DNA of 43,339 nt from Escherichia coli (GCF_003334315.1 NZ_QOWR01000042.1); one strand, 5' to 3'; shown: positions 29,417 to 29,722, counted from the first letter of the stretch. Made by a program: numbers and translations. Notes: generated from the sequence alone by a model not told the origin.

Positions 29417-29692
29417 CTACGTAATCAACCTGATTTGCCGAATCACGGCCATCGGCGATGATAGCCCCCGTAATGCGTGGTCCTTATTTCCGATAAGTTT
29501 ACTTGAGTCTTTAGCTTCCCATTTCAGCCCACTCTCCCCTGTGTGGGCTTTTTTCATTGGTCTGCCCCATCCTGAATAGCCAAACAATGGCAATGTTCCA
29601 CTTTGCAGGGATGATAATAAGGGGATCTGATTCAGAAGAGTTTTGAAAAGTTGGACCGCCATCGAGGCCTCGAACCCCGTACCATACAACAA
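29417..29692 (-). CDS. Hypothetical small protein (possibly yahM); doubtful
   Basis: 91-aa ORF in the ORF track; it is overlapped by the yahN-side terminator hairpin and by a tRNA-like structure, so coding status is uncertain. Confidence 0.3.
   Translation of the reverse strand: MLYGTGFEASMAVQLFKTLLNQIPLLSSLQSGTLPLFGYSGWGRPMKKAHTGESGLKWEAKDSSKLIGNKDHALRGLSSPMAVIRQIRLIT
29526..29555 (+). terminator. Rho-independent terminator candidate downstream of yahN
   Basis: AGCCCAC-(10-nt loop)-GTGGGCT stem followed by TTTTTT. Confidence 0.55.
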
Positions 29693-29722
29693 TCCTGGTT
29701 GTCGTCTGCTCTTCCTGATGAG
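29642..29722 (-). other. Degenerate tRNA-like element (possible tRNA remnant)
   Basis: Minus strand folds as acceptor stem CCGCCAT/ATGGCGG followed by T-CCA; D-arm GCTC-ATCAGGAA-GAGC with G18G19; T-arm CGGGG-TTCGAGG-CCTCG; anticodon region is non-canonical (4 extra nt, loop CAGGATT lacks U33). Confidence 0.3.

Follow-up and report, generated by a model that had tools for sequence, protein, structure and literature searches.

The tRNA-like sequence of Escherichia coli xtpA: invariance across Escherichia and probable descent from phage argN tRNAs

We studied a stretch of 43,339 nucleotides (nt) of Escherichia coli DNA (GCF_003334315.1 NZ_QOWR01000042.1), called here the window; it is K-12-like DNA, and its minus strand corresponds to the plus strand of K-12. 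On this minus strand, between yahL and yahM, there is a tRNA-like element of 81 nt which, from the sequences compared, appears to be as invariant across Escherichia as a true tRNA gene. Given that its coordinates and sequence coincide with those of b4845, the element can be equated with practical certainty with the tRNA-like sequence known from the xtpA transcript, a feature already described in 2022 and contained in the K-12 reference annotation. We add to that description the invariance throughout the genus, the loss of the open reading frame (ORF) outside E. coli, and an ancestry placed precisely at the argN position of phages. The account that we favour, and that we consider probable on the whole, is that the xtpA tRNA-like sequence would be a chromosomally fixed copy of argN in which the constraint falls on a tRNA-shaped RNA.

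Identity and conservation of the element

In NC_000913.3 the gene b4845 is annotated as "putative transcriptional regulator XtpA" (345252-345434), and the window showed zero differences from that record over the leader and the element or in the 25 nt beyond them. A leaderless xtpA mRNA with a tRNA-like sequence was described by Muto, Goto, Kurita, Ushida, Soma, and Himeno (2022, J Biochem 171:459, doi 10.1093/jb/mvac007), and the title of their paper credits the XtpA peptide with raising GcvB levels. In RegulonDB v12, XtpA appears among the small proteins newly added, with a citation of Muto et al. The name xtpA was seen in the annotation of NC_000913.3 only; genomes annotated by PGAP give yahM, sometimes together with an overlapping "hypothetical protein".

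The element has most of the traits of a canonical tRNA: a 7-bp acceptor stem, discriminator base and CCA, G18 and G19, T54, Psi55, C56, and A58, and the G53-C61 pair. The minimum-free-energy fold obtained with ViennaRNA was a cloverleaf, both for the 81 nt alone and within the 214-nt transcript. A preliminary description of this DNA had recognized the acceptor stem, the CCA, the D arm, and the T arm, and each of them could be read from the minus-strand sequence and seen in the cloverleaf. It had assigned them to positions 29642-29722; the structure was retained and the coordinates were corrected, the true span being 29732 to 29652, a shift of 10 nt. The parts are listed in Table 1.

The distribution of the element was examined with an exact scan of 100,044 species-representative genomes, using a 19-mer inside the element, a procedure biased toward conserved copies. 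The chromosomal type turned up in Escherichia alone, namely in E. coli, E. albertii, Escherichia sp. E1V33, the divergent "E. coli" SCPM-O-B-8794, and a contig 99% identical to the window from a "Proteobacteria" metagenome-assembled genome (MAG). One more match, in a Dormiibacterota MAG, was unrelated beyond the 19-mer. A retrieval independent of the element, by means of YahN orthologues 91-93% identical, yielded four further assemblies, all of them with the same 228-nt module of promoter, leader, and element directly after yahN. The module was absent from Citrobacter and Salmonella despite the shared prpB-prpR-yahO-yahN synteny.

Of the 81 columns of the element only 1 was substituted in the nine aligned sequences, and of the 81 columns of the leader next to it 30 were (Fisher p = 1.3e-9); the element also had one single-base insertion before CCA. 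The subset retrieved through YahN gave 0/81 substituted columns in the element and 18/81 in the leader (p = 2.6e-6). The 81 nt were free of substitutions in eight Escherichia lineages, E. albertii included, while the flanks diverged by 12-20%.

Within the species, where the sequence is reportedly conserved in all strains, the element was present in 5169 of 5426 complete E. coli genomes, being single-copy in those of K-12 type. It was identical to K-12 in 4822 of the 5171 matching records, and in 301 further records, of the O157:H7 lineage, it differed by one single-nucleotide polymorphism (SNP) at element position 68 (canonical U63), which turns a G.U pair of the T stem into G-C and is synonymous in xtpA. 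Flanks of equal size differed from K-12 in 43% and 30% of the matching records. As a separate observation, the encoded CCA is changed to ACA in strain Ec15103 (locus L152).

Overlapping reading frames and transcript

The preliminary description had pointed out an overlap with the ORF of a small protein, and in fact two ORFs overlap the element: xtpA, which spans the leader and the entire element (its codons 28-54), and yahM. The xtpA frame is intact only in E. coli proper (all six strains inspected) and in Escherichia sp. E1V33. It has a TAG at codon 4 in E. albertii, SCPM-O-B-8794, and GCA_013786185; in GCA_016656645 and GCA_013369235, two assemblies near-identical to each other, the ATG is lost (AGG, plus TAG, plus a 1-nt insertion), and in GCA_020555995 it is replaced by AAG.

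These observations bear directly on the possibility that only the peptide matters, that is, that the tRNA-like stretch is retained because it encodes the C-terminal half of XtpA, a regulator of 60 residues, and resembles a tRNA by an accident of history. The product name in NC_000913.3, the role of the peptide in the title of Muto et al., and the intact ORF in the six E. coli strains and E1V33 speak for it. However, the 81 nt are identical in the lineages where the ORF is broken or has no start, and across lineages not a single synonymous change was found in the 27 codons of the element, where the adjoining sequence differs by the 12-20% given above. The N-terminal 27 codons evolve freely: 10 of their residues differ between K-12 and E1V33, and the leader SNPs among the six E. 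coli strains were non-synonymous in 4/4 cases. We regard this explanation as unlikely.

The yahM ORF begins with an ATG in the 3' acceptor strand, with a GAGG motif similar to a Shine-Dalgarno sequence in the T loop, 5 nt upstream. It has 11, 16, or 29 codons in the three non-coli lineages examined, whose frames were also listed with a TTG further upstream as the start; the four lineages retrieved through YahN have lost its body. There is a stop at codon 12 in an O157-like strain and there are frameshifts in the B2 strains 536 and Ec15103; the yahN terminator hairpin (29506-29556) lies within the ORF. From this pattern yahM is probably incidental. The location of both the GAGG and the ATG inside helices would fit a cis-regulator in which the cloverleaf hides them to control the translation of YahM; considering how short, deleted, or frameshifted yahM is in other lineages and strains, and that it runs through the terminator of yahN, such a function is very improbable.

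Because the 81 nt are invariant where both the xtpA and the yahM frames are broken, the constraint appears to act on the nucleotides of the tRNA-like part, at the level of RNA or DNA, and not on either peptide; we hold this to be quite likely.

The sigma-70 promoter of xtpA agrees with the consensus at 11 of 12 positions and was retained in the nine aligned sequences (9/9), with the element 82 nt downstream. Its -10 hexamer, CATAAT, ends 6 nt ahead of the A of the xtpA ATG, a spacing that would set the start of transcription at or next to this A, consistent with the published leaderless mRNA. A preprint based on massively parallel reporters (2025-26) found activity for a "yahM" promoter and its start site, with the integration host factor (IHF) as repressor, and termed "yahM" completely uncharacterized. 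Between promoter and element, the leader is predicted to form two hairpins; in the RNAalifold analysis its changes were mostly pair-preserving, and 2 pairs were altered on both sides, which can be taken as weak evidence for structure. We also considered a pairing between the xtpA RNA and GcvB, given that ACGACAAC, the 5' strand of the pseudo-anticodon hairpin, is the complement of GUUGUUGU of GcvB R1; it was rejected, the duplex energy of the whole transcript being no better than that of shuffled sequences or random window segments.

Phage relatives and genomic setting

ARAGORN detected the element as the sole tRNA-like gene of the window (29652-29732, minus strand) and labelled it tRNA-Ser(gga); it placed the anticodon at position 38, 4 nt later than normal, where 34-35 would be expected. 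The element has 81 nt, against 77 nt in its canonical phage relative. In the fold the arm in the place of the anticodon arm has a 7-bp stem (ACGACAA/UUGUUGU) and a 6-nt loop (CCAGGA); no canonical anticodon arm, with a 5-bp stem, a 7-nt loop, U33, and the anticodon at 34-36, could be found in the element. An alternative with 5 bp and the 7-nt loop CAGGAUU has A33 and requires a 4-nt bulge after position 26. The four extra nucleotides and the missing U33 of the preliminary description were in this way corroborated. As a side observation, the hairpin at 29686-29705 (minus) shows ACCAGGAUUGU, similar to the CsrA-binding CAGGAUG motif of CsrB; the resemblance has no statistical support and is speculation.

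The two kinds of tRNA scan disagreed: ARAGORN calls the element, and the Rfam covariance model for tRNA (RF00005) gave no match to it at the gathering threshold (29 bits), nor at E<=10 on 401 nt or on a 96-nt slice, whereas the canonical phage relative scored 56 bits and neighbouring phage tRNAs scored 56-72 bits. Rfam scans at three scales returned neither a tRNA nor any other credible family for the element; weak matches to the Betaproteobacteria toxic sRNA and to miRNAs were discarded as noise, the yahN terminator hairpin excepted.

A functional decoding tRNA, for example tRNA-Ser(GGA) or one with an expanded anticodon loop, would be compatible with the ARAGORN call, with the intact acceptor, CCA, and elbow nucleotides, and with a degree of conservation equal to that of true tRNA genes. 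Against it there are, besides the silence of the Rfam model, the 7-bp arm of the best fold and the bulge and A33 of the alternative, the lack of the long variable arm typical of tRNA-Ser, and the fact that PGAP annotates no tRNA at this locus in any RefSeq genome listed. Since a longer hairpin, which offers no anticodon loop, stands in the place of the anticodon stem-loop, the element cannot act as a normal decoding tRNA, and this explanation is extremely improbable.

BLAST of the element against phage tRNA loci gave E values from 4e-18 (phiP27, 85% identity) to 6e-24 (plasmid pHX138), with 85% identity over 82-93 nt to the homologues of both. In phiP27 and pHX138 the homologue is located between tRNA-Ile(CAU) ileZ and tRNA-Arg(UCU) argO, in a cluster downstream of Q or of a methylase. 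In phiP27 it is unannotated and lies just upstream of stx2e. The 90-kb E. coli plasmid with phage genes (pHX138.261ft_1) has it as an 81-nt "tRNA-OTHER", 85% identical to the element, with a DNA methylase upstream of the cluster and a sialate O-acetylesterase pseudogene downstream. The homologue was also found in mEp460 and in more than 120 prophage contigs of IMG/VR. The names ileZ, argN, and argO were taken from the phiP27 record and are said to go back to Plunkett et al. in 1999.

At the argN position, PhiR49_2 has a canonical 77-nt tRNA-Arg(UCG) (locus L004:3009-3085), the one that scored 56 bits with the Rfam tRNA model; TL-2011c has a gene with a UGG anticodon, labelled Pro by ARAGORN (locus L007:3009-3085), and the Yersinia phage YeP1 has a related "pseudo-TTG" gene with UUG (Gln, annotated pseudo; locus L006:3002-3079). 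The alignment shows that the acceptor, D, and T arms are common to the element and to all these genes. The anticodon of the argN-position tRNAs switches (UCG, UGG, UUG) with the remainder of the molecule kept, which suggests a rapid turnover of the anticodon arm in this lineage. The closest relatives of the element are the tRNAs carried as cargo at the argN position by lambdoid and Stx phages. In this respect the derivation from a tRNA and from a mobile element put forward in the preliminary description was upheld, and the parental tRNA would be the phage tRNA-Arg argN; the xtpA sequence is also said to resemble an arginine tRNA of pathogenicity islands and phages. On the strength of these alignments we consider the argN ancestry very probable.

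In comparison with the canonical argN of PhiR49_2, the acceptor, discriminator-CCA, and T stem of the element are identical, and the D arm and T loop nearly so. The phage gene has 77 nt, a 5-bp stem, and a CUUCGAA loop, and stands between ileZ and argO behind the late promoter, whereas the element has 81 nt and its own promoter and lacks an anticodon loop and any remnants of ileZ or argO. With the 81-nt variant of phiP27, mEp460, and pHX138 the element shares a shortened D loop and extra nucleotides opening the anticodon arm (GAGCAGACGACA...GTTGT), and both fail the Rfam tRNA model; at its centre the arm differs between the two (CGATAACAGGG against ACCAGGATT, plus TATG). The shared short D loop and extra arm nucleotides imply that the chromosomal and phiP27-type copies have a common ancestor after the split from the canonical argN, and this ancestor, judging from the alignment, would already have lost the anticodon loop.

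The homology with phages opens about 8-11 nt 5' of the element (CATATCAAAAA against the spacer CATATCACATA) and ends exactly at CCA. Global alignment against shuffles detected neither a decayed ileZ upstream of the element nor a decayed argO downstream, and the xtpA promoter and leader had no match in phage genomes. The element is flanked by yahL and yahN; the ileZ-argO position behind the late-gene regulator Q is not found there.

The chromosomal copy stands apart from the phage copies of the 81-nt variant, which have the look of pseudogenes in decay. In about 100 of the 120+ prophage copies (IMG/VR loci L013-L132) the T loop has degenerated into runs of G that differ in length (CGGGGGCGGGTCCCCG and longer); the TTCGAGT loop is retained in only 14, and four break off after the aberrant arm. 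Also, around 137 large (170-330 kb) plasmids of Salmonella enterica have an unannotated relative of 73-77 nt, some 78% identical to the element and presumably a canonical tRNA belonging to this lineage.

The gene order in the window is yahK-yahL-[element]-yahM, then the convergent yahN, followed by yahO and prpR, so that yahM and yahN are the annotated neighbours at the 3' end of the element. The neighbours of the module vary on both sides between lineages, and the gene upstream is yahL in E. coli, yahK in E1V33, yahJ in E. albertii, and a gene of a SNF2-family helicase in the four assemblies retrieved through YahN. The yahL segment is AT-rich (GC 0.35-0.41) and gives the impression of a lineage-specific insertion into a site of variable content; around the yahL block (29870, 31123) the search for boundary repeats gave only short two-copy matches, of the kind expected by chance. 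YahL and YahM had no match in PHROGs, nor YahL in phage genomes, and there is consequently no evidence of a prophage origin for the yahL block.

The preliminary description had interpreted the element as a tRNA pseudogene or as the remnant of an attachment site left by an integrated element, which would also have brought the atypical yahL/yahM DNA. The aberrant anticodon arm, the failed Rfam model, the AT-rich yahL, and the variable neighbours would agree with such a neutral relic. Attachment-site remnants at the ends of E. coli K-12 prophages (e.g., ptwF, pawZ) are likewise tRNA-derived DNA tied to horizontally acquired sequence; they are short 3' duplicates of a resident host tRNA whose intact gene is at the other end. 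The element, in contrast, is a complete copy without a host parent, and it is not repeated: neither its 3' 25-mer nor its 16-mer occurred a second time in the window, with up to 3 mismatches allowed. Its relatives, moreover, are phage cargo tRNAs and not integration targets, and the attachment-site interpretation was discarded. The decaying pseudogene was discarded as well, in view of the invariance in eight lineages and of a near-consensus promoter of its own that is conserved. As for the link with the surrounding DNA, the AT-richness of yahL was borne out and the connection was not, the module occurring elsewhere without yahL or yahM. As a whole, a neutral relic is scarcely credible.

It could also be thought that the identity between species comes from a recent spread or from gene conversion by a mobile copy, considering that prophages with arms of 26-32 nt identical to the element are common in E. 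coli. However, no phage or IMG/VR sequence carries an exact match to the pseudo-anticodon arm of the chromosomal type, and the only plasmids that carry this type are F-prime-like plasmids holding a K-12 chromosomal segment. The promoter and leader of the module diverge at the level of species, as vertical descent predicts, and such a homogenisation is barely tenable.

Elsewhere in the window, nine matches to the Rfam family naRNA4 (REP-element) were observed at 3-80, 20298-20468, 25243-25314, and 35000-35441, the last interval having six tandem copies with a spacing of about 93 nt. A y-ome paper mentions a REP-filled yahH region, which the tandem copies fit.

Table 1. Features of the xtpA region, in coordinates of the window.
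Feature	Position	Strand	Basis or remark
tRNA-like element, 81 nt	29732..29652	minus	ARAGORN, fold, phage homology, invariance
Acceptor 5' strand CCGCCAT	29732-29726	minus	sequence
U8 A9	after acceptor 5' strand	minus	sequence
D arm GCTC-ATCAGGAA-GAGC with G18 G19	29723-29708	minus	sequence
Pseudo-anticodon (aberrant) arm, 7-bp stem and 6-nt loop	29705-29686	minus	sequence, fold
Variable region, 6 nt	29685-29680	minus	sequence
T arm CGGGG-TTCGAGG-CCTCG	29679-29663	minus	sequence
Acceptor 3' strand ATGGCGG	29662-29656	minus	sequence
Discriminator T	29655	minus	sequence
Encoded CCA	29654-29652	minus	sequence
xtpA ORF (b4845), 60 codons and stop	29814..29632	minus	ORF list; NC_000913.3 345252-345434
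Sigma-70 promoter TTGACA-16-CATAAT, 11/12 consensus positions	29821..29848	minus	consensus scan
5' leader segment, 81 nt, two predicted hairpins	29733..29813	minus	80-88% identical between lineages
ileZ-argN spacer remnant CATATCAAAAA	29733..29743	minus	9/11 identical to TL-2011c; phage homology reaches no further 5'
Conserved 228-nt module (promoter, leader, element)	29643..29870	minus	alignments, and BLAST of the window to the loci of E. albertii, E1V33, and SCPM-O-B-8794 and to the four obtained through YahN; in all Escherichia lineages examined
yahM ORF, 81 codons	29417..29662	minus	annotation; ATG in 3' acceptor strand

Proposed origin and role

In the account that we favour, argN and a few nt of the spacer that precedes it would have passed from a tRNA cluster of a prophage to a site downstream of yahN in an ancestor of Escherichia. 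In the element the anticodon stem-loop is replaced by the longer hairpin, and the acceptor stem, CCA, D arm, T arm, and elbow nucleotides are kept. The conserved unit would be a tRNA-shaped RNA domain made up of the acceptor/T minihelix and the D/T elbow, most likely recognised by factors that handle tRNAs (RNase P, 3' trimming, CCA maintenance) or serving as a stabilising or regulatory part of the transcript. The XtpA frame would be a younger overlay in E. coli proper. E. albertii is an outgroup to E. coli, and since it carries the TAG at codon 4 this stop is likely ancestral.

A stronger form of this account is possible, although we consider it doubtful: the RNA itself could be the functional product, a domesticated phage tRNA-Arg, and XtpA a young ORF of E. 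coli that arose when TAG, still found at codon 4 in E. albertii and three other lineages, changed to TGG. As the main effector, the RNA would deserve at most this same tentative standing.

There is a partial parallel in Bacillus cereus, whose tRNA-Other is a non-translating pseudo-tRNA reported to affect antibiotic resistance (Rogers et al. 2012, PMC3399842). The two have in common a tRNA-shaped RNA that does not translate and yet is retained. The Bacillus RNA is unrelated in sequence, belongs to a Gram-positive host, flanks a genomic island, and lies outside any ORF, so it serves as an analogy only.

Several points weigh against the account that we favour. The element is dispensable, being absent from about 5% of the complete E. 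coli genomes, and in the clinical isolate DETEC-S792 (locus L134:1501-1620) an IS1 is inserted in its T loop. Several of the non-coli lineages may be close kin, which would make the independent lineages fewer than eight. Full invariance gives no covariation, and the change of G.U to G-C is alone in supporting the structure. All lineages also share a short internal ORF (MVRGSRPRWRSNF), and the constraint may formally act on it, or on the DNA. The published study of xtpA may have shown that the effect depends on the peptide, or that there is no RNA of tRNA size, and either result would weaken a reading at the level of RNA.

The remaining interest lies between the published view, centred on the peptide, and a pattern of conservation centred on the RNA: whether xtpA is a peptide gene, an RNA gene, or both is a question that the comparative result makes testable. 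There is also a point of annotation, considering that PGAP genomes and the recent promoter study still treat the xtpA transcript as "yahM". A deletion mutant of xtpA is reportedly more sensitive to low concentrations of aminoglycosides. If the RNA itself were the functional product, the effects reported on GcvB and on aminoglycoside sensitivity could be partly or wholly mediated by RNA, and xtpA could be a clean example of the de novo birth of an ORF on top of an exapted tRNA.

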